The position numbers and the translations under genes were made by a program. The notes under the pieces are model-generated. The model ran no database searches. It was given only the letters and a program-made list of their open reading frames with translations, and had not been told where the DNA came from. This document shows, one piece after another, positions 14,148 through 36,301 of a stretch of DNA of 64,000 nucleotides; position 1 is the stretch's first letter; each line of letters opens with the position of its first letter. The DNA lies in contig OZ242374.1 in the NCBI GenBank assembly GCA_965209055.1, forward strand, positions 3,360,001-3,424,000. Reading direction: 5' to 3'. This DNA is from Acidobacteriota bacterium. Lineage in GTDB: Bacteria > Acidobacteriota > UBA6911 > RPQK01 > JAJDTT01.

Positions 14148-14184
14148 AACTGTCCCTAAGTCAAAGACTACCGAACATTAACGT

Positions 14185-14883: not shown

Positions 14884-14980
14884 GACGGGAGCGACCCCCC
14901 CTTTTTGCCGCCCGGTGCGGGCGCGGGGGTGCTGCGCAATTCACATTTGCGCAGCACCCCCTGGGGGGGTCGCTCCCGTC
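14884..14980 (+). repeat. Nested hairpin module, copy 1
   Basis: Perfect 18-bp IR GACGGGAGCGACCCCCCC (14884-14901/14963-14980) enclosing a 15-bp stem (14925-14939/14947-14961). Confidence 0.85.
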
Positions 14981-16958: not shown

Positions 16959-17013
16959 AGGAGGCGAAGATCCCGAGAATGGCTCACAGTCGCAACGGGC
17001 TTCCAGGGAAGTA

Positions 17014-17289
17014 CTATTTTCCAGTAATCACCCAGTCCAGGAACTTGTTGAGCAGGACCGCGAGGCTGGCGATCGTGATGCCAGCCTTCCACATCTTGGA
17101 CTCAAGAGCGGTGGTGGAAACCTGTAGGTCCGCTTTGACCTCGACAATCTCGGCCTTTACAGCGGCCACATCCTCCTTGGTGGCCAACTGGTCGCTGATC
17201 GGAATAGCACTAGCTGCGGCCCGAGCCTTTGACTCTGGCGCACCGGCAGCTACCAGCGCGTCATAGACTTCACTCACCATGACTCCCAT
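17014..17289 (-). CDS. Small coiled-coil protein with C-terminal TM helix (DUF1640/CCDC90-like)
   Basis: YDALVAAGAPESKARAAA, LATKEDV, heptad repeats, hydrophobic tail; RBS GGAGG. Confidence 0.6.
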   Translation of the reverse strand: MGVMVSEVYDALVAAGAPESKARAAASAIPISDQLATKEDVAAVKAEIVEVKADLQVSTTALESKMWKAGITIASLAVLLNKFLDWVITGK

Positions 17290-17314
17290 GAGCTTTCCTC
17301 CAACTCAGCCCAGT

Positions 17315-17731
17315 TTACCTTCTCGCCGATAGATCATGCAGCATCGGAAGGCCGTCCAGAGGTGCAGACCAGGACGAAATCTTCCCGGCGCTCAACGACT
17401 TCCAACACGGTGGCGGACCAAGTGCCCCGCCGGCGCGTCGGGGTTTCGATGTGGCACCCAGCCAAGTTCTTGGGGTGCTTGCCCGGGTTGCCCCGGTAGG
17501 ATGAACTCCAAAAGCCATACCCTTCATTTGTTCGGCCTGGACCGCGCGAAGCGGCGAGCGGACCCAGGCGCCGACGTTCACATTGCGTTCCGACTTCAGA
17601 CATTCCGGGGCTCTATCCAGATCGTCGTCAAGGCGGTATTCATCCTTCAAGCGTACCACAGTGGCACCTGTAGCCTGTGGTGGTACATAGATGATTTTGT
17701 CGTGGGGGAATTGGACGTCTTCGATGGCCAC
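17315..17731 (-). CDS. Hypothetical protein, possibly frameshifted
   Basis: ATG with GAGGAG upstream; overlapping ORF 17334-17603 may hold the true C-terminus. Confidence 0.3.
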   Translation of the reverse strand: MAIEDVQFPHDKIIYVPPQATGATVVRLKDEYRLDDDLDRAPECLKSERNVNVGAWVRSPLRAVQAEQMKGMAFGVHPTGATRASTPRTWLGATSKPRRAGGALGPPPCWKSLSAGKISSWSAPLDGLPMLHDLSARR

Positions 17732-17780
17732 AACCGGGCTTCAGGAATCTCCTCAGGGGCCTTCCCGCAGGGATCATTAG

Positions 17781-17877
17781 GACGGGAGCGACCCCCCCAG
17801 GGGGTGTTGCGCAGATGTAAATTGCGCCACACCCCCGTGCCCGCGCCGGGCAGCAAAACGGGGGGGTCGCTCCCGTC
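17781..17877 (-). repeat. Nested hairpin module, copy 2 (inverted relative to copy 1)
   Basis: Same 18-bp IR; reverse complement aligns to copy 1, with similarity extending to ~18020; ATCCCTGCGGGAAGGC at 17774-17759. Confidence 0.85.
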
Positions 17878-18002
17878 CACCTCCGCTTTCCCCGTGCGGG
17901 CGCGGCGAAGCCGGGAATGTGGCCGGAACTGCATGAGCGACAAAGAGATCGGGGAAATCGGAGGTGTAAGTCAAAAGGCTTCCGGGATGTAACTCGCGTC
18001 CT

Positions 18003-18457
18003 TTGTCTCCCTTACACCTCCCGATCGACACCGGGAAGCCCTTTCGCCTCCCCATGAACCTCGTCGATCCGCAGGTGACGCAGCTGTCGCAGGCGCTGCA
18101 GGCGCTGGGCCTTTCCCGGCGGCTGTTCCCGTGCCGCCACTATGCCGGCCATGCCCAGGGACGGAGCCGGTACTTCCCCCGCAAGCTCCCCCTGGCCCTG
18201 GAGGAGGACCGGGCGACCTTCGTCTATGTTGGTCCCGGCCGGGACACCGACTCGGAACTGCTCTCGTTGGGGGTGCGGAGCACGCCCGGCTCTGGACCGC
18301 GCTACGCGCACAAGACCATCCGGTTCACGTGGTCGCGGTGGCCCGCGACGACCTCCGCCGGGAGCGGGCCGGGAAGGTCCTGCGGCGCTGGGCCAGCCCG
18401 AGTCCCAAGGCCGTGTTCCACCTCCGGGGGCCTGCCCGGCGAAGTCCCGGGATGTGA
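18003..18457 (+). pseudogene. Frameshifted fragment of the MGE-associated hypothetical protein (copy 2)
   Basis: Coding similarity is split across ORFs 18003 and 18131; ends CCGGGATGTGA like 14317-14748. Confidence 0.55.
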
Positions 18458-18592
18458 AACACACATGGGGGGGTGTGTTCCACTCTCGGAGCGGCGAGTG
18501 TTACACGCTCCCTTTCCGCCATCCTGTTGAGCCCCTTCGGTTTGTCCCCGCCCTCCGGGAGGAGGCGCGCCCGGACGGGGAGTCCGGGTAGG

Positions 18593-18701
18593 AGAAGTGA
18601 GCGACCCCCCTGTTTTCGTGCCTCGCACGTCACGCAGGCGCTGCCGGTGTTCCACTCCGTTGCACACCGGCGCGGCATGCGCGGGGGGGTCGCTCACTTC
18701 T
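18593..18701 (+). repeat. Hairpin module, copy 3 (divergent)
   Basis: Perfect 18-bp IR AGAAGTGAGCGACCCCCC (18593-18610/18684-18701); ATCCCTGCGGGAAGGC at 18708-18723. Confidence 0.8.
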
Positions 18702-18960
18702 TCATCGATCCCTGCGGGAAGGCCTCTGCGAAGATCGGGATAGGGAGAATTCCAGCCTGTCGTGAGAAAATGCGCCGCATGGGAGAGGACAACGGAAACT
18801 TGCAATGGGAGGCAAAGCAAGCGGCCAGGCGCTTGTCGATGGTCACCTCGACGGCGCGACCGGTTGCCAACGGTTCCAACCCGATCGCCCGCTTCAGCGC
18901 GGGCGTCACCCCGCCGTAGGAACCGAGCCGCGTGTGCTGGATCGCTGACGGAAACGCGAG
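18694..18960 (-). pseudogene. C-terminal fragment of the MGE-associated hypothetical protein (copy 3)
   Basis: LGSYGGVTPALKRAIGLEPLATGRAVEVTID aligns with LNSYGGVTAALKRAVELQPAAEGRSFQVVID; boundaries approximate. Confidence 0.5.
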
Positions 18961-19209
18961 GAACCTCCACTGGGTGGTGCAGAGTTCGCAGACCACAAAA
19001 CGGACTGCGCCCGTTGGTAGGAATCCCCGCTCCGGCAACGCCTCGCGGTGGATCCTGGACGATGTCCAATGGCCTATCCCCAACCCTTGGTCCGGCCTCG
19101 CCAAGCCAACACAGGCCATATGTTGCGGTCCGGATTATGTGGCGGACAGTCCGTATCATCCTGCTGCACGTGAGAACACACCGTATCTCAGCAACATAAT
19201 CTCCTTCAC

Positions 19210-20205
19210 TCAGAGCGCGGCCAGGAAGGCGATCAGTCCCGTGTTTGTCCTCCACGGGCGATCCGAACCGGGCTCGGCGGCATCGCAGAGCGCCATGGCC
19301 CTGGCCTTCATCTCCAGGTCGATCTCGGCGTAGATGTTGGTCGTATCGAGGCTGGCATGACCGAGCCAAGCGCGGATCGTGTTCAGATCGATGCCGGCCT
19401 GGAGCAGGTGGCAGGCGCTGGTGTGACGGATGGTGTGCGGCGTGACCCTCCTTCCGGCGAGCAACGGGACGCGGGCTGCAGAGCGCTCGACGAGCCGATA
19501 GACCCCGAACCGGGTATAGGACCTGCGCTGCCGGCTGAGGAAGACGGCATCCCCGGCTGCCCGTCCCTGCAAGAGTTCCGTGAGCGCGGCTTCGGTCCGG
19601 GGCCACAGCGGACACTGTCGGTGTTTTCCGCCCTTGCCGTGGATGTTGACGAGCGCTTGCCCGCCGCCGCGTCGTCCGATTTGCAGATCGCCCGCCACGA
19701 GCTGAGTCGTTTCGGAGACGCGTGCCCCGGTGTTGTAGAGGAACAGGAGCAGGGCGTGTTCGACCCGGCCTCTCGGCGTTCGCCGGTCCGGGACCTCGAG
19801 CAGTTCCTTCATCTCGGTCTTGCTGAGCCAGCCGATCGGCTTCGGCGCGGCCTTCTTCGAGGCAATCGCACGGATACTGCCGCTCCACTCGATACGTCCG
19901 GGATCGCGGCTGGCGATGAAGCGTGCGAAGGCCCGGATCGCCGATAGCCGCTGGTTGCGGGTCTGCACGGAGCAACCGCGGTCCTGCTCGAGATAGTCGA
20001 GGAACTGGCGCACGTGCCGGGCCGTGAGGTCCTGCACCGCGATCCGTTCGACTGGCTTGCGGGCCTTGGCGCCGACGAACGGCAGCAGGAGTGCGAAGGT
20101 ATCGCGGTAGCTCTTCTGAGTGTTGCGGGCGAGGTTGCGCTCGGTGACGATGTAATCGGCCAGGAAGCGGCGCAGCCAGGGGCCGAGCGTGCGGGGATTA
20201 CTCAT
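19210..20205 (-). CDS. RIT tyrosine recombinase C
   Basis: NTGARVSE, GKGGK, HTIRH, LGH, IY; SAM-like N-terminus RNTQKSYRD. Confidence 0.92.
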   Translation of the reverse strand: MSNPRTLGPWLRRFLADYIVTERNLARNTQKSYRDTFALLLPFVGAKARKPVERIAVQDLTARHVRQFLDYLEQDRGCSVQTRNQRLSAIRAFARFIASRDPGRIEWSGSIRAIASKKAAPKPIGWLSKTEMKELLEVPDRRTPRGRVEHALLLFLYNTGARVSETTQLVAGDLQIGRRGGGQALVNIHGKGGKHRQCPLWPRTEAALTELLQGRAAGDAVFLSRQRRSYTRFGVYRLVERSAARVPLLAGRRVTPHTIRHTSACHLLQAGIDLNTIRAWLGHASLDTTNIYAEIDLEMKARAMALCDAAEPGSDRPWRTNTGLIAFLAAL

Positions 20206-21151
20206 GGTTTCCTCCTCCGTTGACGTAGGCGTCGAAACGGACCGAAGCCTGATGCAGGAGTTCGGGCGTCATCGACAGATAGATCCGGGTGCCGTTGAGA
20301 TCCGTGTGGCCGAGCCAGGTGGATAGCGTCGGCAGCAGTCGCTGGACATCGGCGCCCTGCCGGTACCAGGACTCCAGCCGGTGTACGGCTGCGGCATGGC
20401 GCAGGGAATGAAAGCACGGACCTCGCCGTCCGTCGTTGCGACCTTCGATTCCGGCCTCCTTGAGCAGCTTGGTGAACGCGTGCGCGGCGGTGCTCTGGGC
20501 CAAGGGCGTCCCGTCGCGGTTGGCGAGGAAGGTCGAGGCCGTGCCCTTGGGGAAGGGGCGTTGTGCGCGCCGGGCGGCATAGGTCTTCAGCGCGTCGGCA
20601 AGTTGCCGGCAGACGGGAACGAGGCGGGTCTTGTAGAACTTGGTGTGACGTATGGTCAGCAGCGCATCGGGCAGGTCCACATCGTCGAGGGTCAGGCGCT
20701 GGGCCTCGCCGAATCGCAGCCCCGCACCGTAGAGAAGCTGGAGCAGTGTCCGCAGGGTATCGGCGTCGATCTGGATCGAACGTTGCCGACTGACATCGAT
20801 GGCGTCGAACAGGCGTTGCAACTCGTTGCGGGAGTACACGTAAGGTGGTGAGGACCGCGGTCGAGTCGGCTCTTCATCGCGCGCCGGAAGCGGCGACCGG
20901 GTCACGTAGCTGCGGCTGATCGCGTAGCGGTAGAAGCCGGCCAGGACGCTGTACTTGTTGGCCCGGTACCGGGTTATCGGACCTTGACCGGCAAGGAAGT
21001 CGAGAACGTGGGCTGGGGAGACGGCATCACAGCCGGCGCTCCCGCCGACCTGTTTCAGGAACCGGTGCAACAAGTATGCGCCGGTGTCGAACTTGGCGCC
21101 ATGGGCCTGACGCCAGGCGATATAGTCGTTGACCGCATCCCGGAGCATCAT
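20198..21151 (-). CDS. RIT tyrosine recombinase B
   Basis: GLRFGE, TKFYKTRLVP, HSLRH, LSTWLGH, IY. Confidence 0.92.
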   Translation of the reverse strand: MMLRDAVNDYIAWRQAHGAKFDTGAYLLHRFLKQVGGSAGCDAVSPAHVLDFLAGQGPITRYRANKYSVLAGFYRYAISRSYVTRSPLPARDEEPTRPRSSPPYVYSRNELQRLFDAIDVSRQRSIQIDADTLRTLLQLLYGAGLRFGEAQRLTLDDVDLPDALLTIRHTKFYKTRLVPVCRQLADALKTYAARRAQRPFPKGTASTFLANRDGTPLAQSTAAHAFTKLLKEAGIEGRNDGRRGPCFHSLRHAAAVHRLESWYRQGADVQRLLPTLSTWLGHTDLNGTRIYLSMTPELLHQASVRFDAYVNGGGNHE

Positions 21152-22380
21152 GTCAGGCCCTCAAGATCGATGTCGGCGACCTCACGGAGGGTGCTGAGGT
21201 TCACCTTGGCGTACACGGCGGTGGACGAGGTGCTGCGATGGCCGAGGTAATCGCCGACCTCCTTGATCGACAGGCCGTGGTCGAGCAGGTGCTGGGCGGC
21301 AGCATGACGAAGCGCATGGGCACCGCGACGTTTGCCGGTGATACCGAGCTGATCGAGGCGTGTCCTGACGACGTTCGAAACTGTCTGCCGGGTCACCGGA
21401 CGGATCGGAGCGATCAGAGTGAGGAACAGTGCCCTCTCCGGGCGCAAGGCACGAACCTCGGTGAGGTAACGCACGATCGACTGCCCGACGCCGCGGGAAA
21501 GCGGATAATGATGGGGGCATCCCGACTTGGGGCGGCGTACCCGTAGCGTCTCCTCTTCCCAGTCCAGATCATCGAGGAGCAGGCCGGCGACCTCGCGGGC
21601 ACGCAACCCGTACGCGATCAGCACCATCAGGATGGCACGGTCGCGAAGGTCGGCCGGCCGGTTGCCCTCGGAGGTTGCGAGCAGGCGGAGCACCTCGCCC
21701 CGGTTGAGTCCCTTCGGGAGTGTCTCGCCGGGATGGAACCGCACCGGCATGATCCCGTCAGCCAGCCCCAGTGTACACCAGCCCTGGCGTTCGGCGAACC
21801 GGGAAAAAGTGCGCAGACGCTGCCCGTAAACGCGGACCGTGCTCCGACTGCAGCCACGGGCGTGCCAGCGCATGACCGCCCGGTCGATGTCGGCGACAAC
21901 GACCGCATCCAAGGCAATGCCCCACTCGCCGAGCTAGTCGAAGAAGCAGTCCATCGTATGGCAGCAAGTACGGATCGTCACCTCGGACCATCCGCGCTCT
22001 TTGCGCATCCACTCCTTGAAGATCGTGGCCTCGGCGACGTGGGCGTGCCGTTGCCGCACCCTACAGGGCTCATCGAGCAGACCCGCGAAGCGTAGCCATC
22101 GCACTGCGCGGCTGACGAAGATCCGGCGCACCCCCGGTCGCGCCGAACGACACGGTCGACGGTCGGTCGCCGCCTCGATCCGGGGCAGGCTGACGCGCTC
22201 GCCTGCCCGCAAGTCCAGAAGACGAATCAGGGTGATCTGAGCCGCTGCGATCGTGCGTAATGTGAGCGGTCGCGCGCCCTCCTGCGCGCAATGCCTCAGG
22301 TAGCTCAACCGTTCTTCCAACAACGGTTCGCAGCGATAACGGCCTATCGTGCCGCGGTCGATGAACAGGGCCTCGAACAT
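21148..22380 (-). pseudogene. RIT tyrosine recombinase A with in-frame TAG
   Basis: ORFs 21934-22380 and 21148-21912 share a frame (CFFD*LGEWG); catalytic YGLRARE, HALRH, LGH, Y lie downstream of the stop. Confidence 0.85.
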
Positions 22381-22521
22381 GATCGTGCCTCCTTGTGGGG
22401 TGAAGACATGATTATGGTCGAACGACTTCCCGTCAGATAATTATGTTGCTGAGATACGGCGTGTTCTCATGTGCAGCAGGACGATGCAGACTGTCCGCCA
22501 CATAATCCGGACCGCAACATA

Positions 22522-22555
22522 TGGCCTGTTATGTGGCACTCAACATAACAGGCCA
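22522..22555. repeat. Perfect 13-8-13 palindrome (loxP-like geometry) at RIT right end
   Basis: TGGCCTGTTATGT-GGCACTCA-ACATAACAGGCCA. Confidence 0.8.
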
Positions 22556-22674
22556 AATGGCGGGCTTGTTTTTTCGGTAGTTCTCGATGATTGCGCCTGA
22601 GTGGGTTTCAGGCGGCATATCGGCGGACCATGGCTCCGCGCAGGACTTCAAGCTGGCGCTCTACGCAAGGCGGA

Positions 22675-23898
22675 TCAACGGAGCCGGACGGACGCCCGAG
22701 GCCGACTCTCGTCGGCCAGATAGCCCGCCCAGTTGTCCATGAGACGCCTCCGCCGCTCGAACAGGTCCGTCCTCCGGTAGGCCGCCTCGACCGGATTGCG
22801 CACCTTGTGCGCCAAAGCCGCCTCCGCCACCTCGCGCGGATGTTCCGTCTCCTCCGCCACCCAGTCCCGGAAACTCGACCGGAACCCGTGCGGCACCGCC
22901 GCGATCTTCAACCCCCGCAGCAGGTCCGACATGGCCGTATACCCGATGGGCTTTCCACCCACCCCCGGAAAAACGAGTGGGCTGCCGCCAGCGAGCGCCC
23001 GCGCCTCCTCCAGGATCTCCAACGCTCGCCGGGCCAACGGAACGCGGTGCTCCCGATTCACCTTCGTCCGTGGGGCCGGGATGGCCCATACTCCTTCCTC
23101 CCGGTCGATCTCCTTCCACGCGGCCCCACGGACCTCGCCGGAGCGTGTCGCCGTCAGGACCAGGAACTCGAACATCAGCTTCAACATCGGCCGCTTGTTC
23201 GATGCCCGCACCGTCTGGAGTGCGGACGCCACTTCACCGTGAGGCAACGCCCGCATGTGACGCACGGCGGTCCCCTGCGAGCCGAGTACCGGACCGATCC
23301 GGTCGCAGGGGTTGTCGGGCCGAAGATCCATCGCCACGGCCCACTCCAGAACCGCGCGGATGCGCTGGCGCAGCTTCCGGGCCGTGGCGGCCTTCTCGTG
23401 CCAGATCGGAGCCAGGATTCCGATCACGTCCGCGCTCGTCACCTGCGCAATCGGTATCTTCCCGATATGAGGCAAGACGTAGCGCTCCAGGCTCCACAGC
23501 CAGAGCCGCGCATGCCGGGGGGAGCGCCAGCCCGGCCGCAGCTGCTTCCAGACCGCCCCAGCGGCGTCCGCGAAGCTGGGCATCGACTCGGCCCGCCGGT
23601 TCGCGGCCCGGGGGTCGCCCCCGTCGCGGGCCAGCTTCCGGTTGGCGAATGCTTTCTCGCGCGCTTCCTTGAGCGAGACGAGGGGGAATCCACCGAGCCC
23701 GAGCTCGGTTCGCCGGCCCCGGATGGTGAGGCGCTGGATCCAGCCCCGGCTCCCTGTAGGCCGGACGTAGAGGTAGAGGCCGTGGCCGTCGCAGTATCGT
23801 CCGGACTGGCTCACGTTGCGGACAAAGGCCGGGGTCAGGGCATTGAGGGGATGCGGCCCGCGCGGCTTGCGTTTGGGAGGTTGTTTCGGGAATCTCAT
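22675..23898 (-). CDS. P4-like tyrosine integrase with arm-DNA-binding (DUF4102) domain
   Basis: GRYCDGHGLYL...LGLGGFPLVSLKEARE, TATRSGE, PHGFRSSFRDW, ALAH, AYRR. Confidence 0.92.
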   Translation of the reverse strand: MRFPKQPPKRKPRGPHPLNALTPAFVRNVSQSGRYCDGHGLYLYVRPTGSRGWIQRLTIRGRRTELGLGGFPLVSLKEAREKAFANRKLARDGGDPRAANRRAESMPSFADAAGAVWKQLRPGWRSPRHARLWLWSLERYVLPHIGKIPIAQVTSADVIGILAPIWHEKAATARKLRQRIRAVLEWAVAMDLRPDNPCDRIGPVLGSQGTAVRHMRALPHGEVASALQTVRASNKRPMLKLMFEFLVLTATRSGEVRGAAWKEIDREEGVWAIPAPRTKVNREHRVPLARRALEILEEARALAGGSPLVFPGVGGKPIGYTAMSDLLRGLKIAAVPHGFRSSFRDWVAEETEHPREVAEAALAHKVRNPVEAAYRRTDLFERRRRLMDNWAGYLADESRPRASVRLR

Positions 23899-24357
23899 AC
23901 CTACCACTATATATACCACAATATGGTGGATGCAAGGGGATGAAGCGGGTCGGTATGGGACAAGGTCGGATGTCCGATCTAGTTGTAAACCAATCATAAA
24001 CAAACACTTATGGACAATACTGGACTTACCTGGACGATGCACCTGATTAAATCTAGGCTTCCTAGCGGGAAGGCTCCAATAGGGCTACTCTGGCAATCTG
24101 TGTAGTCAATCCTCTATGAGCCAGCGCAGGCCATCGGTCTTGCCGATCTGGGGTGGAAAGTGGATCTGGTTGAACGCTCGATCCGGAATGGGAACCAGGA
24201 CCTCGTCGAAGCGCTGGAGCAGAACGCCGATAGACAAGTGAGACTATTTGACCTTGCCGTTCGGTAACGAATTGCAAAAGGTCCAAGTGATACTCCACCT
24301 TGCTCCGGTCGGCCAAATTGGCCAAGATTGACGTTTGCCATCAACTGTAGGAGTGGC

Positions 24358-24542
24358 ATGCGGAAGCCGAGCGCGAAAGACGCGAAGTACGGCTTCGGCC
24401 GACGCATCGGCCTCGCCCGCGCCGCGCCCGTCACGGTGACCAAGCACGGGCGGTTATCGTGGCGCTCTTGGTCGAGGAATACGAGCGCCTGAAGGCGCTT
24501 GACACACCTGAGGCACGCTCGGGAACGGAGGAACGGGAATGA
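24358..24542 (+). pseudogene. Phd/YefM antitoxin, frameshifted
   Basis: MRKPSAKDAKYGFGR..ARAAPVTVTKHGR, then in another frame [17 protein letters not shown]; GGCCAAATTGGCC dyad upstream. Confidence 0.7.
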
Positions 24543-24573
24543 CGTGGAACAGAACGGGAGGCCGCTGAGCCGG

Positions 24574-26898
24574 ATGGACAAGCGAGGCCTCTCAGAGCGT
24601 GACATCTGCACGAAGTTCATCACGCCCGCTCTGCGCAACGCCGGGTGGGACGAGATGTTGCAGATTCGCGAAGAGGTGAGCTTCACCCAGGGCCGGATCA
24701 TCGTGCGGGGCAAGCTGGTCGCACGCGGCAAGGGGAAACGCGCCGACTACATCCTTTATCTCAAGCCAAACATCCCGATCGCCGTGATCGAGGCGAAGGA
24801 CAATTCCCACAGCCTCGGCGACGGCATGCAGCAGGCTCTGGATTACGCCGAGATCCTGAACGTTCCCTTCGCGTTCTCTTCGAACGGCGACGGCTTCGTG
24901 TTCCACGACCGTACGGGGGCCAGTACACCGCTTGAGTCGGACCTTTCTCTTGAAGACTTTCCGTCACCCGCCGATCTGTGGGCGCGCTATCGGGCCTGGA
25001 AGGGCCTGACGCCGGAAGCCGAGGAGATCGTCCTTCAAGACTATTTCGAAGACGGCAGCGGCAAGACGCCGCGCTACTACCAAGTCAATGCCATCAACGC
25101 GACAATCGAGGCCATCGCCAAGGGGCAGAACCGTATCCTGCTCGTCATGGCCACGGGCACGGGCAAGACCTATACCGCCTTCCAGATCATCTGGAGGCTA
25201 TGGAAGGCGCGCCGCAAGAGACGCATCCTGTTTCTCGCCGACCGCAACGTGCTCGTCGATCAGACGATGACGAACGATTTCCGCCCGTTCGGCGGCACAA
25301 TGACCAAGCTCTCGCGCCGGATCGACCCGGCGTACGAGGTCTATCTCGGCCTCTATCAGGCAATCACCGGACCGGAGGAACGCCAGAAGACGTACCGAAA
25401 GTTCTCACCGGAGTTCTTCGATCTGATCGTGATCGACGAATGTCACCGGGGCAGTGCTGCCGACGATTCGGCGTGGCGCGAGATCCTTGAGTACTTCTCT
25501 GCCGCAACCCAGATCGGTCTCACCGCCACGCCGAAGGAGACGAAGTACGTCTCCAACATCGCCTATTTCGGGGAGCCGGTCTTCACTTACTCCTTGAAGC
25601 AGGGCATCAACGACGGTTTCCTCGCGCCCTACAAGGTGGTCAAGGTCCATATCGATCGGGACGTGGAGGGCTACCGCCCAGAGAAGGGAAAGGTCGACCG
25701 CGTCGGCGAGCCAGTTGAGGATCGCGTTTACAACTTGATGGACTTCGACCGAACTCTGGTCATCGACGAACGGACGACACTCGTCGCGCAGAAGGTCACG
25801 GCTTTCCTGAAGGAGAGTGGCGATCGTTTCCAGAAGGCGATCATCTTTTGCGTCGATCAAGAGCACGCCGCGCGGATGCGTCAGGCGCTGATCAACGAGA
25901 ACGCGGATCTCGTCGAGGGCAACTCACGTTACGTCATGCGGATCACCGGTGGAGATACTTTGGGACAGGCCGAACTCGGGAACTTCATCGATCCGGAATC
26001 GAAATACCCCGTCCTGGTCACCACATCGCGCCTGCTGTCCACCGGCGTCGACGTCCAGACTTGCCGGTTGATCGTGCTCGACCGAGCAGTGGGGTCGATG
26101 ACCGAGTTCAAGCAGATCGTCGGCCGCGGTACCCGCGTGCACGAAGACACACGAAAGTTCTACTTCACGCTCATCGACTTCCGGGGGGCCACGGGTCATT
26201 TCGCGGACCCGGACTTCGACGGCGAGCCGGTCCAGATTTACAGGCCGGAGGAAGACGGTCCGATCGCGCCACCCGATGGGCCGGATCCCGGCCCGAACGG
26301 GAACGGCGACGTAGATCCACCGCCGGGGCCACAGAAGAAAATCTATGTCGATGGCGTCGAAGTGGCCATCGTCGCTGCCCGGGTGCAATACCTCGACGGG
26401 CACGGCAAGCTGGTGACGGAGTCGTTGCGTGATTTCACGAGGAAAGCCCTGCGCCGGCGCTTCGCGAGCCTTGACGACTTCCTGAACCGTTGGAACGCCG
26501 CAGAGCGCAAGCAGGCAATCATTGATGAGATGGAGGCCGAGGGCCTGCCGCTGACCGTGATCGCCGAAGAGTTGGGCAAGGATCTCGACCCCTTCGATCT
26601 CGTCTGTCACATCGCCTTTGACGCCAAACCGCTGACCCGCCGCGAGCGGGCCGAGAATGTCAAGAAGCGGGACGTGTTCGCGAAATACGGAGGTCAGGCC
26701 CGCGCTGTGCTCGATGCGTTGCTCGACAAGTACGCGGACGAGGGCATTCTCAATCTCGACGACGCCAACGTCCTTAGAATCCCGCCACTCGACCGACTCG
26801 GTACACCGTTGGAACTGGTCCGCGCCTTTGGCGGGAAGCCCGGTTTCGAGCGGGCCGTGCACGATGTTCAATCCGCCCTCTATCGCGAGATCGCCTAA
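24574..26898 (+). CDS. hsdR: Type I restriction enzyme R subunit (EcoAI/EcoEI-like)
   Basis: ADYIL...IEAK nuclease, [25 protein letters not shown]; start taken at [12 protein letters not shown]. Confidence 0.95.
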
Positions 26899-26901
26899 GA
26901 G

Positions 26902-28353
26902 ATGTCCGTCAGCACGCTCGTCAAGTCGATTCAGAACATCATGCGCCAGGACGTGGGCGTCGATGGCGATGCGCAGCGCATCAGTCAACTGTGCTGGATG
27001 TTCTTCCTCAAGATCATCGACGATCAGGACCAGGAGCTCGAAGTTCTAAAGGACGGATACCGTTCGCCCGTACCTGACCCATTGCAATGGCGGAGTTGGG
27101 CCGGCGACCCGGAAGGCATCACAGGCGAGGAGTTGCTCGACTTCGTCAACGGCGATCTCTTTCCGAAGCTGAAGGAACTTCCGCGCAGGGCCGGCCCTCG
27201 CGCCAGCGTCGTGCGCGACGTGTTCGAGGACGCCTACAACTACATGAAGTCCGGCCCGCTGCTGCGGCAGGTTGTCAACAAGATCAACGGAATCGACTTC
27301 AACAACCTGACCGACCGGCGGCACTTCGGCGATATCTACGAGCAAGTCTTGAACGATCTGCAATCGGCCGGCAATGCGGGCGAATACTACACGCCACGCG
27401 CCGTGACCTCGTTCATGGCCCAAATGATCGACCCGAAACCGGGCGAGACCCTGCTCGATCCGGCGTGCGGCACTGGCGGGTTCCTCACCTGCGCCATCCG
27501 TCATATGCACGAACGCTACGTGAAGCGGACCGAAGATGAGGCAAGGATGCAGGCCTCCCTGCGGGCCATGGAGAAGAAGCCACTCCCCCACATGCTCGCC
27601 GTCACGAATATGCTCCTGCACGGCATCGAAGATCCGTCGTTTCTGCGCCACGACAACACACTGGCGCGCCCCTACATCTCTTGGGGCCGGGACGACCGCG
27701 TGGACATCGTGTTGACCAATCCGCCGTTCGGTGGCAAGGAGGAGGACGGCATCGAATCGAACTTCCCGAAGCACTTCCAGACGCGCGAGACGGCTGACCT
27801 GTTTCTCGCCCTGATCGTCCGACTTCTGAAACCCGGCGGCAGGGCTGCCGTGGTCCTACCCGACGGCTCCTTGTTCGGCGAGGGTGTCAAGACGCGGCTC
27901 AAAGAGCACTTGATGAGGGAATGCAACCTTCACACCATTGTGCGCCTGCCGAACTCGGTGTTCTGTCCCTACGCTTCGATCGGGACGAACTTGCTGTTCT
28001 TCGAGAAAGGCGAACCGACCAAGGATGTCTGGTTCTGGGAACACCTCGTACCTGAGGGCCAAAAGGCCTATTCAAAGACCAGACCCATCCGGCTGGAGCA
28101 TCTTGAGGACTGTGCCGCTTGGTGGGGCGGGGCGGAACGTAAGAGCCGCGAGGAAGGTGAACGAGCTTGGAAGGTGACTGCCGAGGAGATCGCTACGCGC
28201 GGCTACAACCTCGACATCAAGAATCCTCATACCGAAGAAGAGGACCTTGGCGATCCCGAGATGCTACTGGAGGAGCTGACGCGTGCCGAGGCCGAGGTGA
28301 ACTCAGTGCGAGACCAGTTGAAGGGAATCCTGACAGAGGCGCTGTCACGGTGA
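26902..28353 (+). CDS. hsdM: Type I RM N6-adenine methyltransferase
   Basis: GEYYTPR, DPACGTGGFL, NPPF. Confidence 0.95.
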   Translation: MSVSTLVKSIQNIMRQDVGVDGDAQRISQLCWMFFLKIIDDQDQELEVLKDGYRSPVPDPLQWRSWAGDPEGITGEELLDFVNGDLFPKLKELPRRAGPRASVVRDVFEDAYNYMKSGPLLRQVVNKINGIDFNNLTDRRHFGDIYEQVLNDLQSAGNAGEYYTPRAVTSFMAQMIDPKPGETLLDPACGTGGFLTCAIRHMHERYVKRTEDEARMQASLRAMEKKPLPHMLAVTNMLLHGIEDPSFLRHDNTLARPYISWGRDDRVDIVLTNPPFGGKEEDGIESNFPKHFQTRETADLFLALIVRLLKPGGRAAVVLPDGSLFGEGVKTRLKEHLMRECNLHTIVRLPNSVFCPYASIGTNLLFFEKGEPTKDVWFWEHLVPEGQKAYSKTRPIRLEHLEDCAAWWGGAERKSREEGERAWKVTAEEIATRGYNLDIKNPHTEEEDLGDPEMLLEELTRAEAEVNSVRDQLKGILTEALSR

Positions 28354-30089
28354 ATGCTGACCGCCTATTCGCCCTATACGACCGCGTAGCCGAGGCACCG
28401 GACGCCATTGGACGTCTGCGCCGCTTCGTGCTGGATCTCGCCTTGCGGGGAAAGCTTGTGGAGCAGGATCCGGCAGATGAACCGGCATTGGGACTGCTGA
28501 ACCGGATTGATGAGGCGAATGATCCACTGGCAGGATTCAACCGGGCTAAAAAATCACGAGCACTACCACCGATAAACCCGAGGGAGGTCCCTTTCGAGTT
28601 ACCATCAGCCTGGCAATGGGTGTATTTCGGGAACATCGTCGATTTTTCCGCAGGCCGGACGCCCCCACGGAAAGAACCATCGTATTGGAATACCGGTGAT
28701 TTCCCATGGATCAGCATCGCCGACATGGAGGACGGAAAGACCCTTCGATCTACGAAGGAGACTGTGAGCACCGAGGCCCGTCTCAACGTCTTTAAGCGTG
28801 AGCCGGAGCCACCCGGCACAATGATCATGAGCTTTAAGCTCACAATTGGAAAGATCGCCAAGCTGGGCATCTCCGCGTTTCATAACGAGGCAATTATTTC
28901 CATTCGGCCACATGTCGGTGACCTAAACTCCTACCTATTCAAGGTTCTACCTGATCTTGCACGGGGCGCCAATACCAAAGGAGCAATCAAGGGCGCAACG
29001 CTTAACCGTAAGTCACTTTTGACCATAATGGTCCCGCTCCCGCCTCTCGCTGAGCAGTGCCGCATCGTTGCCAAGGTCGATGAACTCTTGGCGGTTTGCG
29101 ACCAGTTGGAGAAAGCACGCACCGCGCGGGAGGACACCCGCGACCGGCTCACCAAGGCCAGTCTTACCCGTCTAGTTGCTCCCGACATCGACGCCCCGAC
29201 GTTTCGTTCTCACGCGCGCTTTGCCGTCGATGCCCTGCCCGCACTGACCGCTCGTGCCGATCAGATCAGGCATCTACGCCAGACGATTCTTGGCCTCGCC
29301 GTGCGGGGGAAGCTGGTGGAGCAGAATCCGGCGGACGAACCGGCGGACGAAATACTGGAACGGATCGCGGCAGAAAAGGTACGACTGTTGAGGGCACGAA
29401 AGATCAGGAGACACAAATCAACTGCATCGTTGTCACGAATAGAATCGGATTTTGGACTACCGAGTGGTTGGGCGGCAGCAAGGTTCTCGGATGTCGTGAC
29501 TGAGTTACGAACCGGACCCTTCGGCAGCTCCCTTCACCGGAGTGACTATGAAAAAGGCGGAACACCCGTCATCAATCCTGCATCAATACAGGATGGGAAG
29601 ATTGTTCCTTTCGAGAATATGGCGATAGGGGACGATACTCTTGAGAGACTCGCAACGTTCAAACTCCGCGCCGGTGACATCGTGATGGGCCGTCGTGGCG
29701 AAATGGGACGCTGCGCGGTGGTAGAACAGAGCGAGGAAGGTTGGCTCTGTGGGACGGGAAGCCTGATTCTCCGTCTTTCGAATAGCCTCTATCCAAAATA
29801 CCTAGCAATGCTCATCGGATCGCCCAATTTTCGGGAAAATCTTCGAGGTCATTCTGTCGGCGCTACAATGCAGAATCTGAATCAGTCCATTCTGTTGAAG
29901 ATGAGCATTGGTCTACCACCGCTCGCCGAGCAGTACCGCATCGTTGCCAAGGTCGATGAGTTCCTAGCGCTCTGCGACCGCCTAGAGGCCCGTATCACTA
30001 CCACAGATGGCACCCGCCATCGTCTCCTCGGAGCCCTTCTGCATAATGTGCTGGCATCAAACACGAAGCCGCGTCCTCTTGGAGGCTAA
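28350..30089 (+). CDS. hsdS: Type I RM specificity subunit
   Basis: Two TRDs with repeated GKLVEQ(D/N)PADEPA and PPLAEQxRIVAKVDE; GTG overlaps the hsdM stop. Confidence 0.93.
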   Translation: MNADRLFALYDRVAEAPDAIGRLRRFVLDLALRGKLVEQDPADEPALGLLNRIDEANDPLAGFNRAKKSRALPPINPREVPFELPSAWQWVYFGNIVDFSAGRTPPRKEPSYWNTGDFPWISIADMEDGKTLRSTKETVSTEARLNVFKREPEPPGTMIMSFKLTIGKIAKLGISAFHNEAIISIRPHVGDLNSYLFKVLPDLARGANTKGAIKGATLNRKSLLTIMVPLPPLAEQCRIVAKVDELLAVCDQLEKARTAREDTRDRLTKASLTRLVAPDIDAPTFRSHARFAVDALPALTARADQIRHLRQTILGLAVRGKLVEQNPADEPADEILERIAAEKVRLLRARKIRRHKSTASLSRIESDFGLPSGWAAARFSDVVTELRTGPFGSSLHRSDYEKGGTPVINPASIQDGKIVPFENMAIGDDTLERLATFKLRAGDIVMGRRGEMGRCAVVEQSEEGWLCGTGSLILRLSNSLYPKYLAMLIGSPNFRENLRGHSVGATMQNLNQSILLKMSIGLPPLAEQYRIVAKVDEFLALCDRLEARITTTDGTRHRLLGALLHNVLASNTKPRPLGG

Positions 30090-30129
30090 ATGCATGCAAA
30101 TGCATGGCCTACGAGGACACGGAGGGCGG

Positions 30130-30415
30130 ACTACGACTACGGCACCAATGTGCATCACAAGCTCAAGCGGAAAGAGTTGGCCTACGCCCACCTATCGACT
30201 TCGTTGGTTACTTCAAACGGGAGAACTGCCACGCCAGAAAGGAAATCTGGAGCGAAGCCTCTCCGGACGGTCGATGGCGCGCCTACTCGCTGGAAGCCCT
30301 TCTTCGACGAGATAAGACTAGCCTCAAAGTGTTCTGCCTGAAGGACCTATCCATGACCGATCTGGAGAACCTTCGCTCTGCGCAGAGCAGCTTCGAGGCG
30401 GTGAGAGAAAATTAG
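30130..30415 (+). pseudogene. C-terminal remnant of a second, different HsdM
   Basis: DYDYGTNVHHKLKRKEL (30090 frame) then DFVGYFKRENCHARKEIWSEASPDGRWRAYS...RDKTSLKVF.LKD (30104 frame) resembles an HsdM C-terminus. Confidence 0.6.
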
Positions 30416-30470
30416 GATCGCGCAATGCGCTGCTGGATGGATGGCACCCTTCCCTGACACACCGAACGTG

Positions 30471-31025
30471 TCAGGTTATCGATGTTGGTGGAACACGCTG
30501 CGGCGGCCGGAAAGCACTCCTGAGTTGCCAGGCAATTGCCATCATGCGGTATTTACGGTTTTGGGCTCCTGGTTCGATATCCAAGTTTTGGCAGATATCG
30601 GCGTGAAAGATATTCTCGGCGATGCCGGAGTCATAGACACAGAACAGCCGTTTTCCGCCTTTCCGCAATTTCCGGACATCTTTGGTGTAGGTTGCGATGA
30701 ACTGCAAATAGCCGTTGTACCGAGGGTCGATGCATTTGCTTGACTTTAGGAGCTCGGGACTCATCAGGAGCACACGGTCAACGGAGAACCCCTTGGTTGC
30801 GGGCTCGGGGCGAAAGTACACGGGCTTCACGTGCCCGTCTGGACCGATATGGTGTTCTCTGAATAGAGTGCGCACGAGCACCTCACTATCGGCCACTGGA
30901 CCAAGCGAGTACTCACTGACGGATTCGCGTTCACAAGCGCAGTCAGGAAACCTCTCGCGGTAGCGAGCGCACTTGCAGTCGTCTTGGCCATACTCGGTCT
31001 CCAACTCCAAACAGCTGCACGACAT
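30471..31025 (-). CDS. Hypothetical protein, possible ADP-ribosyltransferase-like fold
   Basis: Starts just after the upstream stop; Cys-rich N-terminus, then EVLVR...GFSVDR...NIFHADI. Confidence 0.6.
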   Translation of the reverse strand: MSCSCLELETEYGQDDCKCARYRERFPDCACERESVSEYSLGPVADSEVLVRTLFREHHIGPDGHVKPVYFRPEPATKGFSVDRVLLMSPELLKSSKCIDPRYNGYLQFIATYTKDVRKLRKGGKRLFCVYDSGIAENIFHADICQNLDIEPGAQNRKYRMMAIAWQLRSAFRPPQRVPPTSIT

Positions 31026-31038
31026 GACGATAGCGGAC

Positions 31039-31686
31039 TCAGGTGGGATCTTGTATGCGCAGGATTCGCAGCATGTCGTCCGGCCAAGGGTCGGTCGCAT
31101 CCACGCCGTCATTGCCGCACTTCTCAGCCACAGCTCCAGGCACTCCATGAACGGCGAAGTATGCATACGTGCCGTCGCCCTCGAAGGTCACCTCGGCGAA
31201 TACGTGTGCATGCCGGATATCCCAGTACACACCGACGTCCCCTTCGGCACCTTCCTCCGGGTAGGGCAATGGAATGTCGCCAGGCCTGCTGTCTAGGAAG
31301 GTCAAGGCGTCGTTTACCGCCTCTTGCGACGGTGCCTTAGCGCCGTCTCCGTCCCAGTTGTCATCCAATTGCGCATAGGAGACGAGTTCTTGGCGGAGCT
31401 TGGATTCGGCGTCAGAGGTGAATGAGGTCCAGCGGCCCGCCTCGCGGCTCTTTCGCGCACGGAGTGCTGTCGAGATCTTCGGCTGAGCATACCATGTCAG
31501 AGCTGATCGTCGTGAATCAACTTGGACATCTGGCTTGACGCAAGCTTCGCGGAACCGCCTCGCCCAAGAGTGCTCGGATTCTCCGGGCGTGGTCATGACG
31601 ATACAGGTACCTGGTATTGTTTCTACCAGAGTAGACAACTCCCCGACGGCAGGAGGCAAGGAACGCTCCACTAATCCATTGGTCAA
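31039..31686 (-). CDS. Hypothetical protein with LDDNWDGDGA motif
   Basis: TTG start after AGGAG; acidic C-terminal domain. Confidence 0.65.
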   Translation of the reverse strand: MTNGLVERSLPPAVGELSTLVETIPGTCIVMTTPGESEHSWARRFREACVKPDVQVDSRRSALTWYAQPKISTALRARKSREAGRWTSFTSDAESKLRQELVSYAQLDDNWDGDGAKAPSQEAVNDALTFLDSRPGDIPLPYPEEGAEGDVGVYWDIRHAHVFAEVTFEGDGTYAYFAVHGVPGAVAEKCGNDGVDATDPWPDDMLRILRIQDPT

Positions 31687-31696
31687 CGTAGATCTC

Positions 31697-32680
31697 CTAT
31701 CCTGCTCTTGGACCCGTCTTGATCGAGGTGATTGCAGGTTTGCTCTCGCCAACGTCGTTCTTGTGAGTCACTTGCACGTCGTATTCAGTGTTGGGCTTGA
31801 GATCAACGAAGGAGCACATGTTAAAAGGTGTCTCGAACCCGGGACTCCACGCTTGCGTTCCTGACTCCCTGATACGAACGACGGAAGTGACTGTCGGGTT
31901 CCATTTGGCCTCGAGCGTCCGTCCGAGCTTGTCGGGTAGCAGCACAGAGATCATTTTGCCGTCCCACACAAGGCGCGGATTTTCGGAGCGGCTCGACATC
32001 TGATGATCCATGGTCGTGTAATCCTGACCGAGCCTAGGCGCGATTTGCTCCGCAAGGATGCGGTCTAGGACGAGCACGGATCTCAACGGAATGTAAATGC
32101 GTATGACGGACCCGCGGCTCGTGCCCGAAAGTGAGAGGTGGCTATCGTGCAACATCCCACGCGACTGCCAATAGGCCAACATTGAGCGGAAATTACGGCG
32201 ACCCGCCGGGTGCTCGTCTCTAGCCTCCTCCGAGAACGGGCTAGTACTTATCTCCATCTCGAAGTCGTGAGCGCTCACTTGGTCGTATATATTGCACAGC
32301 GCCTCCCGTGAGGCAGTCGGAAGGGCATCGAACAATTTGGCGAGGTGCGGGGCGGCGTTGGCCGGAAGCGCATCTTTGTTCTGGGCGAGAAAGCTCAGCA
32401 GACGGAACGAGTGCACGTAGGCGAGACCGAGGTTCGTCGTCGCGGACAGGCACGCGCCGATGTGGCGGATGGCCCCGCCTCCCGGGAGTTCCGCCAACTT
32501 GCTTACCACATGGTCGGGGACAGCAAGCCTACCGTCGTCCTCCGTCTCCAGTTCCCGATATCCGTCGATCGCCTGCAGAACAGGGTCGAGGGTTACTCTG
32601 GCCGCTTCGAAAAACGAGATCACCATTTCGTAAAGGAACGGTACATGTGCATGTAGTTTGTGGGTATCAACTCCTGTCAT
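31697..32680 (-). CDS. Hypothetical protein: helical N-terminal domain plus C-terminal FN3-like domain
   Basis: C-terminal FVDLKPNTEYDVQVTHKNDVGESKP is an FN3 signature; HLAKLFDALP in the N-terminal part. Confidence 0.7.
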   Translation of the reverse strand: MTGVDTHKLHAHVPFLYEMVISFFEAARVTLDPVLQAIDGYRELETEDDGRLAVPDHVVSKLAELPGGGAIRHIGACLSATTNLGLAYVHSFRLLSFLAQNKDALPANAAPHLAKLFDALPTASREALCNIYDQVSAHDFEMEISTSPFSEEARDEHPAGRRNFRSMLAYWQSRGMLHDSHLSLSGTSRGSVIRIYIPLRSVLVLDRILAEQIAPRLGQDYTTMDHQMSSRSENPRLVWDGKMISVLLPDKLGRTLEAKWNPTVTSVVRIRESGTQAWSPGFETPFNMCSFVDLKPNTEYDVQVTHKNDVGESKPAITSIKTGPRAG

Positions 32681-32784
32681 GGCTGCCTAGCTTCGCGGTT
32701 GGTTGACGCGTGTGCTGTAGCCCTCGAACGTATGCAAAAGGGGTAGTGCGCACGGAATTGAAGGGCGCGGTGGTACCATGTAGT

Positions 32785-33120
32785 TCATTTCTTCAGAAAC
32801 GGAGTGATCTTCCCAACAGCACCGTTTGATTTCGTTCTGCACTTTAGCCTGATTGGAGGACCTTCGCCCGTTGCGTTTTTGTGCGTAACTTGGATCTCAT
32901 ATTCCGTGTTGGGTACAAGGCCGACGAAGCTGCAGCCGTTCAACGGTGTCTCGAAGCCAGGGCTCCAGATTTCTGTACCTGTCTCCCGTATCCGGACCAC
33001 GGTGGTGGTGCCGGGACGCCACTTGGCATCAATAATCCTGCCTTGAAGCGGAAGCGAGACTCTGAACTCTCCGTCAGTCCACTCAACCCTCGGTTCGGCA
33101 TCTCTGGGTTGCTTAGCCAT
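32785..33120 (-). CDS. Stand-alone FN3-like domain protein, paralogous to the C-terminus of 31697-32680
   Basis: VVRIRETGTEIWSPGFETPLNGCSFVGLVPNTEYEIQVTHKNATGEGPP; ATG at 33120 after GGAGA. Confidence 0.7.
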   Translation of the reverse strand: MAKQPRDAEPRVEWTDGEFRVSLPLQGRIIDAKWRPGTTTVVRIRETGTEIWSPGFETPLNGCSFVGLVPNTEYEIQVTHKNATGEGPPIRLKCRTKSNGAVGKITPFLKK

Positions 33121-33294
33121 ATGACTTCTCCGCAAAGGCATCTTGGAGATACCCTCCAACCTAGATGTCAACCTACCACAAACTAAGGTTTTGCGCGCAA
33201 CAGAGGGATGAGAATCGCGGAAGGCGGTGGAACGTCTGGCAGCGATGACCCGGGAGGTTGAAACGTGCATCTTCGCGTGAAGGAACAGACGTCC

Positions 33295-33520
33295 ATGATG
33301 ATCGGCAAGGCAGTCGTACTGATCTCAGGTACCCAACCGTAGGCTCTTCAGCGTTGCGGCTACGGCCCAGTACTTGGGAATGTCCATCGGTACGATTCGC
33401 AAACTGGCCGATATGAACATCATCAAAGCCAGAGCCGAATTCGACACCGCCGACCGGCGCCGTCGCGTCTTAGCCCGGGAAGACTTGAACCCCTGCGGCG
33501 ATTCTCTGGAGCCGTGTTAG
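33295..33520 (+). pseudogene. xis: Excisionase/RDF (HTH_17-like), frameshifted
   Basis: MMIGKAVVLISGTQP, one extra base, then RLFSVAATAQYLGMSIGTIRKLAD; directly upstream of int. Confidence 0.7.
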
Positions 33521-33567
33521 GATTCGCCGCAACGGCGAAGAACCCGGATCCAGAAAGGAGGAGATGC

Positions 33568-34656
33568 ATGGGCATCTACAAAGTGAAGGATCGCCGGGGG
33601 AGAAGACGCTATGTCGTCAGCAAGTACTGGCCGCACGGATCCGGTCGGCTCCGAATGTACGCCCCCAACTACCGGAGCGCACAGGCGCTTCAAACACGAA
33701 TCGAGTCCAGCATCCTGGACGGCACCTGGAAGCAGCTCAAGGAGGAGCTCGCCGGCGGGAAACGCACCATCTGGACGGTGCACAGCTTCTACGAGCGTTT
33801 CTTCGAGGAGTATTGCAAACCTCGCATGCGCTCCCGGCGTCGCTATGCGCTCTCGTTCAAGAGCCTCAACGCCATGCTGGGGAACATTCCCCTGAAGGAG
33901 TTCCGACGCAAGGACCTGTACCGCTACGTCGCCCAGAGGAAGAAGCAAGTGCAGCCGGCCACGGTGAACCGCGACATCGCCGCCCTCAGCAAGCTGTTTT
34001 CCTACGCGCTGGAGTGCGGGGAAGTGGACACGCACCCGCTGGTGAGATTCCCCAAACTCAAAGAACCCAAGAAGGTCTTCCGGCCCTTGACGGTTCCACA
34101 GTTCCGCGACCTGGTCGAGGCGATGGACAATCCGTACCTGCAAGCCATGGTTGCGGTGATCGGCGAGACGGGAATTCGGAAAGGCGAGGCGTTGTCGCTC
34201 ACCTGGAAACGGGTGGACCTGTCCCGGAGGCTGCTATGGGTGGAATTCACCAAGAACGACGAGACGAGGGAGATCCCGCTGTCGAAGTACGCTGCTGGAT
34301 ATCTGGCCGGGCTGGTTCGTTACCTGAACACGCCATACGTTTTCGTCAACACCCGGACCGGGACGAGATGGGTGAATCCGGACAAGCCATTGCGCCGCGC
34401 CGCCGAGCGAGTGGGGTTGAAGGTCGGATTTCACGATCTGAGACGATTCCGGTGCAGCCATTGGCTGATGCAGGGTGTGGACGTGAGGACGGTGCAGAAG
34501 CTGATGGGACACTCATCCATCAGCACGACCATGCGCTACGCCGGGTACGTCAGTTCGCATGCGCTTGCCAGCATTCGGGAGGCACAGGCTACCGAAGACT
34601 CCCAAACGCAACCGGCAACAAACAGGCAACGGGCAGGAAATAGGGTGAGTGACTAG
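33568..34656 (+). CDS. int: Tyrosine recombinase/integrase of the outer island
   Basis: PATVNRD, TGIRKGE, TKN, FHDLRR, MGH, TMRY; RBS AGGAGG. Confidence 0.93.
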   Translation: MGIYKVKDRRGRRRYVVSKYWPHGSGRLRMYAPNYRSAQALQTRIESSILDGTWKQLKEELAGGKRTIWTVHSFYERFFEEYCKPRMRSRRRYALSFKSLNAMLGNIPLKEFRRKDLYRYVAQRKKQVQPATVNRDIAALSKLFSYALECGEVDTHPLVRFPKLKEPKKVFRPLTVPQFRDLVEAMDNPYLQAMVAVIGETGIRKGEALSLTWKRVDLSRRLLWVEFTKNDETREIPLSKYAAGYLAGLVRYLNTPYVFVNTRTGTRWVNPDKPLRRAAERVGLKVGFHDLRRFRCSHWLMQGVDVRTVQKLMGHSSISTTMRYAGYVSSHALASIREAQATEDSQTQPATNRQRAGNRVSD

Positions 34657-34694
34657 AGTAAAGCAGTGGCGTAAACCCTTGAAAACAAAAGCGC

Positions 34695-34737
34695 ACGCCC
34701 GAATCTCAGCAGGACAGAGGACGGGACTGTTAGTCCC
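34695..34737 (+). other. Right attachment site with degenerate tRNA-5'-half-like sequence
   Basis: ACGCCCGAATCTCAGCAGGACAGAGGA resembles a tRNA acceptor 5' strand plus D-arm; the core forms a GGGA/TCCC stem with 7-nt loop CTGTTAG; no T-arm follows. Confidence 0.6.
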
Positions 34738-34863
34738 CCCGTCTTCGGTGTTGCTATGCGATCGGTCTCTGGCCGGTGACGGAGATTCCGAGTAACGTGG
34801 TCAGAACGCCGAAGAAGTCAAACCAAACGGAGATCACCCCATCGCAAGAGGAGCGCAGGAAAA

Positions 34864-36224: not shown

Positions 36225-36301
36225 GGAGGGGCGATTTCCAATCGCCCGTACGCCGTGTTTCGGGAGTTTCGAAGAATCGGCGGTTAGGAAACCGCCGCCC
36301 C
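36225..36301. repeat. Inverted pair of REP-like palindromes
   Basis: GGAG-GGGCGATT-TCC-AATCGCCC (36225-36247,+) and CGGCGGTT-TCCT-AACCGCCG type (36278-36301,-). Confidence 0.7.

Follow-up and report, generated by a model that had tools for sequence, protein, structure and literature searches.

The window, a 64-kb stretch of Acidobacteriota DNA, carries a tyrosine-integrase island measuring 20,590 bp from loop to loop (about 20.6 kb; Table 1), an extent given by a 15-bp direct repeat that lies at one end and recurs once, at the other. The flanking host genes, a PQQ-repeat gene (12835-14100) and an M19 dipeptidase gene (34864-36210), are co-oriented. Elsewhere in the host part there are a duplicated M19 dipeptidase pair (34835-37677) and tandem paralogues with many repeated DxDxDG-type motifs (2987-11346 and 62601-63987). 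A genome scan for relatives of the integrase confirmed at least 494 loci, of which 80 were analysed (designated here by L-numbers). The flanks of the island matched these 80 loci nowhere beyond the repeats described below, and neither an empty site nor an excised circle was observed.

Table 1. Features of the island, its attachment sites and a neighbouring hairpin pair, in window coordinates.
Feature	Position	Strand	Basis or remark
Integrative island	14137..34733	+	15-bp direct repeats; junctions; ends homologous to L003, L004 and L049 islands
attL host half: GGAG tag and 5' arm of REP-like hairpin	14127..14136	+	
attL core, 7-bp overlap 14137-14143	14133..14147	+	15-bp direct repeat; junction
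IHF-like site, left arm, 41 nt from overlap	14185..14197	+	1 mismatch to IHF consensus
Arm-type repeat, left	14256..14270	+	same 15-mer at 34614; L003 and L004 carry it at each end
Frameshifted HTH_17 gene, probable excisionase pseudogene	33295..33520	+	
Tyrosine integrase, 362 aa, pointing at attR	33568..34656	+	Pfam PF00589; alignment
Arm-type repeat, right, overlapping the integrase gene end	34614..34628	+	same 15-mer as at 14256
IHF-like site, right arm, ending 42 nt 5' of overlap	34672..34684	+	
Probable decayed tRNA-Arg 5' half: acceptor strand, D arm, 5' strand of anticodon stem	34695..34726	+	
attR core, overlap 34727-34733 placed like an anticodon loop	34723..34737	+	direct repeat; junction
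attR host half: hairpin 3' arm and flank	34734..34756	+	20/25 identity to flank 3' of L003 attR
Vacant pair of related GGAG-type hairpins, inverted, BIME-like	36225..36301	.	

The two ends have the layout of a lambda-type attP whose arms are now divided between attL and attR, with putative roles for the motifs. Both sides show the same symmetric arm layout, namely repeat, IHF-like site, about 42 nt, and core. The IHF-like sites come from a scan with what we take to be the IHF consensus, which gives 17 matches in the whole window on both strands. From their sequence and placement, the 15-mer repeats are candidate integrase arm sites, and the motifs on both arms are predicted to have an IHF role. 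The host half at attL pairs at 6/6 positions with the host arm at attR, and its region is identical at 19-20 of 21 positions to free repeats in L002, L003 and L049.

Several other elements are nested in the island. An inverted repeat of 209 nt (14788-14996 and 17765-17973) holds a unit of about 100 nt with 18-nt terminal inverted repeats, an inner 15-bp stem and a 7-nt loop; each of the four islands has this unit, frequently in inverted pairs, and the 209-nt repeat may be a candidate origin, a MITE or a cassette boundary. A RIT-like set of three tandem tyrosine recombinase genes with a truncated N-terminal piece (19111-22529) is bounded by a 90-nt inverted repeat. A second, P4-like integrase with Arm-DNA-bind_3 and Phage_int_M domains (22675-24042, reverse strand) is 86% identical in DNA to a copy in L002, and a short stretch from its 3' end is found directly 5' of the integrase in L003. 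The cargo at 24499-30089 is a Type I restriction-modification operon (R, M and S, the last with repeated specificity domains), and at 31697-33270 (reverse strand) two adjacent ORFs have in common a fibronectin-III-like C-terminal stretch (134-nt repeat, 71% identical).

The integrase at the right end retains an intact catalytic set in the alignment (R204, K229, H289, R292, H315 and Y324). Comparison with solved structures returned generic tyrosine recombinases only, and searches of plasmid and phage collections at E 1e-30 and 1e-25 yielded no relatives. The frameshift in the HTH_17 gene could reflect decay or an assembly error; intact homologues of 85 aa are present in L007, L012 and L050, and the domain match has an E-value of 6.7e-4 for the window piece and 1e-11 for the L012 protein. 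In L002-L004 no intact excisionase gene was found in the region 5' of the integrase.

The segment of chief interest begins 38 nt 3' of the integrase stop codon. It consists, in order, of a 27-mer (34695-34721), a 5-nt arm (34722-34726), the loop CTGTTAG (34727-34733) and TCCCC (34734-34738); the stem around the loop has 4 bp, its outermost pair being mismatched. The first-pass annotation had described this as a tRNA start agreeing with a typical template at 22 of 27 positions and leading at the expected spacing into a stem with a 7-nt loop. A hand count gives the same 22/27, with mismatches at 1, 8, 10, 21 and 26, against this template, which is not a database entry, and the arm and loop do stand at the expected spacing. 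It had also noted that neither T-arm nor CCA follows, and indeed ARAGORN predicts 0 tRNAs in the window, while its relaxed mode (-ps80) returns noise only. The segment does not form the full cloverleaf of a functional tRNA gene, as T-arm and 3' acceptor strand are absent; in the D-stem register it is paired at 4/4 positions.

The identity of this half-tRNA was assessed against a reference library of 59 tRNAs predicted by ARAGORN in the 80 loci, which provide 51 distinct 5' parts. With the loop as anchor, the best match is to tRNA-Arg, at 20/26 positions, and none of 15,000 random window positions or 5000 shuffles does as well. Against the Acidobacteriota tRNA-Arg(TCG) of L014 the identity is 20/27. 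With the acceptor strand removed it is 14/20, which is equalled by 8 of 10,000 random positions. A comparison with E. coli tRNAs gives 19-20 matches of the 5' part for argU/argX and 12 for asnT. Covariance models had been proposed as a check, the lack of a significant score counting against the reading, and their outcome depends on the model. An Arg-specific model built from seven Arg 5' halves ranks 34695-34738 at the top of 14 window hits (17.4 bits, E about 1.4e-4 with a rough calibration; next hit 8.0 bits), although the choice of Arg followed the first template and the library match and hence was not blind. The generic tests are not significant: a 5'-half model from 50 tRNAs gives 9.4 bits (E 2.4, rank 7/27), a tRNA PSSM gives 2.0 bits, a value reached at 229 of 127,948 window positions, and an Rfam scan of the window reports nothing. 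Such tests are weak for half-tRNAs, and the Rfam blank is uninformative, because a control, the tRNA-Ser 5' half beside the integrase of L023, was likewise missed by Rfam and the generic covariance model. Together with the comparisons that follow, this leads us to read the segment, with good confidence, as what remains of a tRNA-Arg 5' half; it stands at attR in an island belonging to a clade that today uses REP-like hairpins as insertion sites.

Among the matches listed, four sister loci (L002, L003, L004 and L049) on one Acidobacteriota chromosome encode integrases 88-90% identical to that of the window. The right end is retained in L002-L004, and L049 has a GTAG hairpin there instead. Arg-like 5' halves are present in L002, L003 and L004 in the same register as in the window, matching at 19, 18 and 15 of 26 positions. 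Of 5000 shuffles, 0 reach the Arg match for the window, 0 for L002, 1 for L003 and 26 for L004. When the four relics are summed, the six Arg 5' parts take the first six places among the 51, with a top score that is not attained in any of 10,000 column shuffles. A blind blastn of the 59 tRNAs against the 80 loci also recovered the L002 relic as Arg (E 0.005). The Arg covariance model gives E 0.017 for L002 and E 0.36 for L003, and does not list the L004 relic, an unrelated site in L004 scoring higher. None of the four relics contains an indel (4/4), and the distance from IHF-like motif to loop is 42 nt in each; their decay differs, such that they agree with Arg at partly different positions.

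The pairwise identity of the relics is 11-19/27, and the window relic is nearer to tRNA-Arg (20/27) than to any sister relic (11-15). Fourfold-degenerate sites of the integrase genes remain 72-84% identical, and the greater divergence of the relics is not accounted for by simple neutral decay of a single ancestral copy. The bases just inside the left end are strongly variable as well, and for this reason sequence close to the crossover may evolve at an unusual speed or be subject to exchange. The relic stem ACGGA of L002 and L003 equals the Arg(TCT) stem of L001, a relative that targets this tRNA, and the first left-arm bases also agree with the L001 Arg(TCT) arm; this tentatively suggests the UCU isoacceptor of tRNA-Arg as the source of the relic.

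The wider integrase family is a tRNA-targeting one. Among the matches listed, 22 loci encode integrases at 37-66% identity, and in 20 of these a tRNA, or half of one, lies no more than about 250 nt from where the integrase ends; of the other two, L014 has a tRNA-Arg(TCG) beyond an inserted segment of about 1.1 kb and L012 has none. The same inserted segment breaks the att arm of two different integrases of one genome (L012 and L014). Targets that are tRNA-Arg genes occur in L001 (TCT) and L014 (TCG). Displaced tRNA fragments start at about position 26-33, which places the crossover of the family at the anticodon arm. These results bear out the earlier reading of the segment as a fossil of tRNA targeting, as does a quick tree of the integrases, in which the repeat-targeting clade nests within the tRNA-targeting family. 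The tree was midpoint-rooted and includes 29 protein-only rows without a target label, long branches (L008, L025 and L058) and two short rows.

In 19 of the 20 tRNA-adjacent relatives the tRNA is antisense, 3' end first, and in one (L010, Leu) it is sense; the displaced fragment of L010 was not found on its short contig. No relative was seen with an intact sense Arg half, and the integrases at 55-74% identity are known as proteins only. Since the relics are sense 5' halves, the ancestor of the clade would have been of the rarer 5'-replacing kind, implying a flip in orientation from an antisense 3' half to a sense 5' half. A possible route is a microhomology swap, as in both kinds of half an acceptor strand comes first and a strand of the anticodon stem comes last. 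Sense tRNAs lie directly 3' of the integrases of L010 (5143-5227), L023 (5723-5765), L030, L058, L021 and L037, so that the 5'-replacing arrangement recurs on several branches.

The present targets of the clade are of a different nature. Left ends were located for L003, L004 and L049. Four right ends and one further left end all lie in GGAG-led REP-like hairpins and 0 in tRNAs; the window, L002-L004 and L049 yielded 0 tRNAs, and none lies at any end. In the three both-ended islands the loop is the same at both ends of each island and the host arms pair at 6, 6 and 5 of 6 positions; across islands the loops are CTGTTAG, TTTCTAG and TTTCCAA. The window and the four sister loci (about 147 kb) contain seven free hairpins of the target type, with GGAG, a 6-bp stem closed by GA/TC and a 7-nt loop; one of them is a single loop base off the target of the island in the window. 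In the window alone such hairpins show no enrichment (4, against 0-5 in shuffles). Further copies of related GGAG hairpins are found at 39312-39335 and 48169-48192. The first-pass annotation had proposed retargeting to a REP, and the repeated hairpin with host arms pairing 6/6 agrees with this. The label itself holds less well. These repeats are short, extragenic, GC-rich, multi-copy hairpins with related types in inverted pairs, but the foot tag is GGAG (window, L003 and L049) or changed (L004) and not GTAG or GTGG, and a crude RAYT motif scan of the window and the 80 loci detected none; they are for these reasons called REP-like here. The attR of L004 (11161-11200) has two tandem target-like hairpin halves, the second with the loop of L003, possibly the scar of an earlier insertion. 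A selected GTC 8-10 nt after the loop, mimicking tRNA positions 46-48, was considered and rejected, as 2/4 primary attR sites and 1/7 free repeats with it are too few to support the idea.

It is also conceivable, though we regard it as doubtful, that the repeats themselves descend from a tRNA-Arg arm, the integrase having followed its old target into a repeat family. The repeat at 39312-39335 (reverse strand) aligns at 20/22 columns with part of a tRNA-Arg(CCT) from Acidobacteriota (L075, 10906-10982), namely the anticodon arm and the end of the D stem, and related GGAG repeats lie at 48169-48192 and 36278-36301. None of 1500 palindrome-keeping shuffles scores as high, the shuffle space being small; the likeness was first spotted by eye, 2 of 8 repeat variants scored well, and the similarity of the targeted subtypes to the tRNA-Arg arm is not significant. 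If this descent were true, a bacterial repeat of tRNA origin would be paired with an integrase that exploits it, the island having become multi-copy and transposon-like.

Taking the decayed tRNA-Arg half as the preferred reading, the segment 34695-34726 is likely the attP arm, preserved at attR, of a tyrosine-integrase island of the lambda type. The target of an ancestor would have been the anticodon loop in a tRNA-Arg gene, probably that for the UCU isoacceptor; the 5' half would have come with the island itself, restoring the tRNA on the downstream side of the integrase. Later the clade would have switched to host repeats that fit the same enzyme, with a GC stem, GA/TC closure and a 7-nt pyrimidine-led loop, in which the loop acts as overlap while the stems act as core sites. 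Once a tRNA no longer had to be repaired, substitutions would have worn down the half, its length being kept because it fills the spacer between IHF-like site and core. The overlap of each island would be the loop of the repeat last entered, and the multi-copy nature of the target would allow several such islands to accumulate per genome; four copies (L002-L004 and L049) are found in one genome, and contigs of a single length recur in three of the protein clusters. In a comparison at up to 2 motif mismatches, with L012, L014, L025 and L042 left out, the IHF-like motif lies 41-43 nt from the loop in 11/11 cases with a short-arm tRNA, a sense tRNA or a repeat, and 52-54 nt in 11/11 antisense Leu cases. 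The relic thus probably survives as a helically phased spacer of fixed length, although the argument from spacing is partly circular, as the length of the tRNA half itself sets much of it.

Continued selection on the half, either as structured RNA at the 3' end of the integrase transcript or through occasional entry into tRNA-Arg genes or refreshing of the arm from them, would account for certain features, such as pairing of the D-stem register in the four relics (4/4, 4/4, 2/4 and 3/4), the closeness of the window relic to tRNA-Arg and the rate at which the relics outpace synonymous sites. We nevertheless judge it unlikely, as covariation does not exceed that of shuffles (46-75/500), no promoter- or terminator-like site is found nearby, and the conserved T8, G10, G15 and G18 are lost in different copies, so that a rebuilt tRNA would be defective. 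A chance resemblance of ordinary non-coding DNA to a tRNA start gains from the insignificance of the generic models and from the relatedness of the four relics, which are not four independent trials. It is nonetheless hardly credible in view of the random-position and shuffle controls, the top rank under the Arg model, the exact register with the overlap, the partly different positions at which the sisters match Arg, and a family of integrases that targets tRNAs.

Two other tRNA origins were also weighed. The first-pass annotation set off GTT at the centre of the loop; taken as an inherited Asn anticodon, this would point to an island targeting tRNA-Asn(GTT) that landed once at a secondary site, and the loop is identical to that of E. 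coli asnT at 6/7 positions and the stem is similar. However, the body of the half is Arg-like, the 5' part agreeing far better with argU/argX than with asnT (E. coli being the only Asn reference), and all 5 junction sets seen lie in repeats. The sisters use other loops, and one free repeat has a loop only a single base different from this one; GTT therefore belongs to the repeat, as its loop, and an Asn origin appears very improbable. The relic might instead derive from an antisense 3' half that looks like a 5' half only because acceptor strands are complementary, which would accord with the antisense orientation in 19/20 tRNA-adjacent close relatives and with a 42-nt spacing equal to that of L001. 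Yet the best antisense match is 9/26 as opposed to 20/26 for sense, the gapped scores are 23 and 36, and the D-arm part alone is significant; ungapped and gapped match scores refute this origin for the window, L002 and L003, and only L004, the most decayed, is ambiguous (27 vs 25). As an account of the relics in general, it is extremely improbable.

Known mobile elements offer partial parallels to the arrangement proposed here. In the Islander collection 2083 of 3919 islands are described as A-site, and 159 are listed with a 5' fragment (PMC4383910). The present islands resemble this 5'-fragment class in having an on-board tyrosine integrase, a crossover in a 7-nt loop with a palindromic stem around it, and an attP carrying part of a tRNA in register with that loop. 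They differ in that no tRNA is rebuilt or displaced and the target is a repeat: in the window, L002-L004 and L049 there is no intact tRNA at one end with a fragment at the other. What is called damage in the Islander text, moreover, is a small deletion near the 3' end, unlike a half decayed throughout. Use of a 5' tRNA half has been reported for pTN3-like integrases of archaea, where the anticodon arm fits the att core of the recombinases and secondary sites have a role (PMC8371274). Frequent target switching is described for Islander islands (PMC4383910). The specificity change proposed here is akin to these accounts in its target switching and secondary att sites (PMC8371274, PMC4383910); it departs from them in that the switches described in those texts are among tRNAs or single sites, whereas in the present islands attP still shows the old target, and a repeat family has taken its place.

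Insertion sequences, too, use REP sequences as landing sites (PMC3733652, citing Tobes and Pareja 2006), and share with the islands the choice of multi-copy extragenic palindromes. In contrast to them, the islands are 4-21 kb long and are moved by a tyrosine integrase with arm and IHF-type sites rather than by a transposase, an enzyme that descends from tRNA-targeting integrases. The repeats themselves resemble the GTAG REP/RAYT (TnpAREP) systems, whose structure and tags are treated in PMC8266576, PMC6006769 and PMC3733652, in their tetranucleotide foot, short GC-rich perfect hairpin, extragenic location and inverted pairs, and GTAG versions are also present in the same loci as the GGAG repeats. 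They are distinguished by the GGAG start of the targeted copies, a tag absent from the main text of these three papers, and by the lack of any RAYT gene seen nearby. A literature search covering open texts and few subscription papers found neither a REP-targeting tyrosine-integrase clade nor decayed tRNA halves in attP.

As a rule, switching of integrase targets is deduced from trees; in this case the old target is legible in the att site beside the new one, in several sister islands and at different stages of decay. The route from anticodon arm to palindromic repeat by structural mimicry is directly testable with one enzyme and two substrates. The acceptance by an integrase of several 7-nt loops within a multi-copy repeat bears on overlap identity as a constraint on retargeting, and the finding points to a class of islands that is invisible to tRNA-based island finders.
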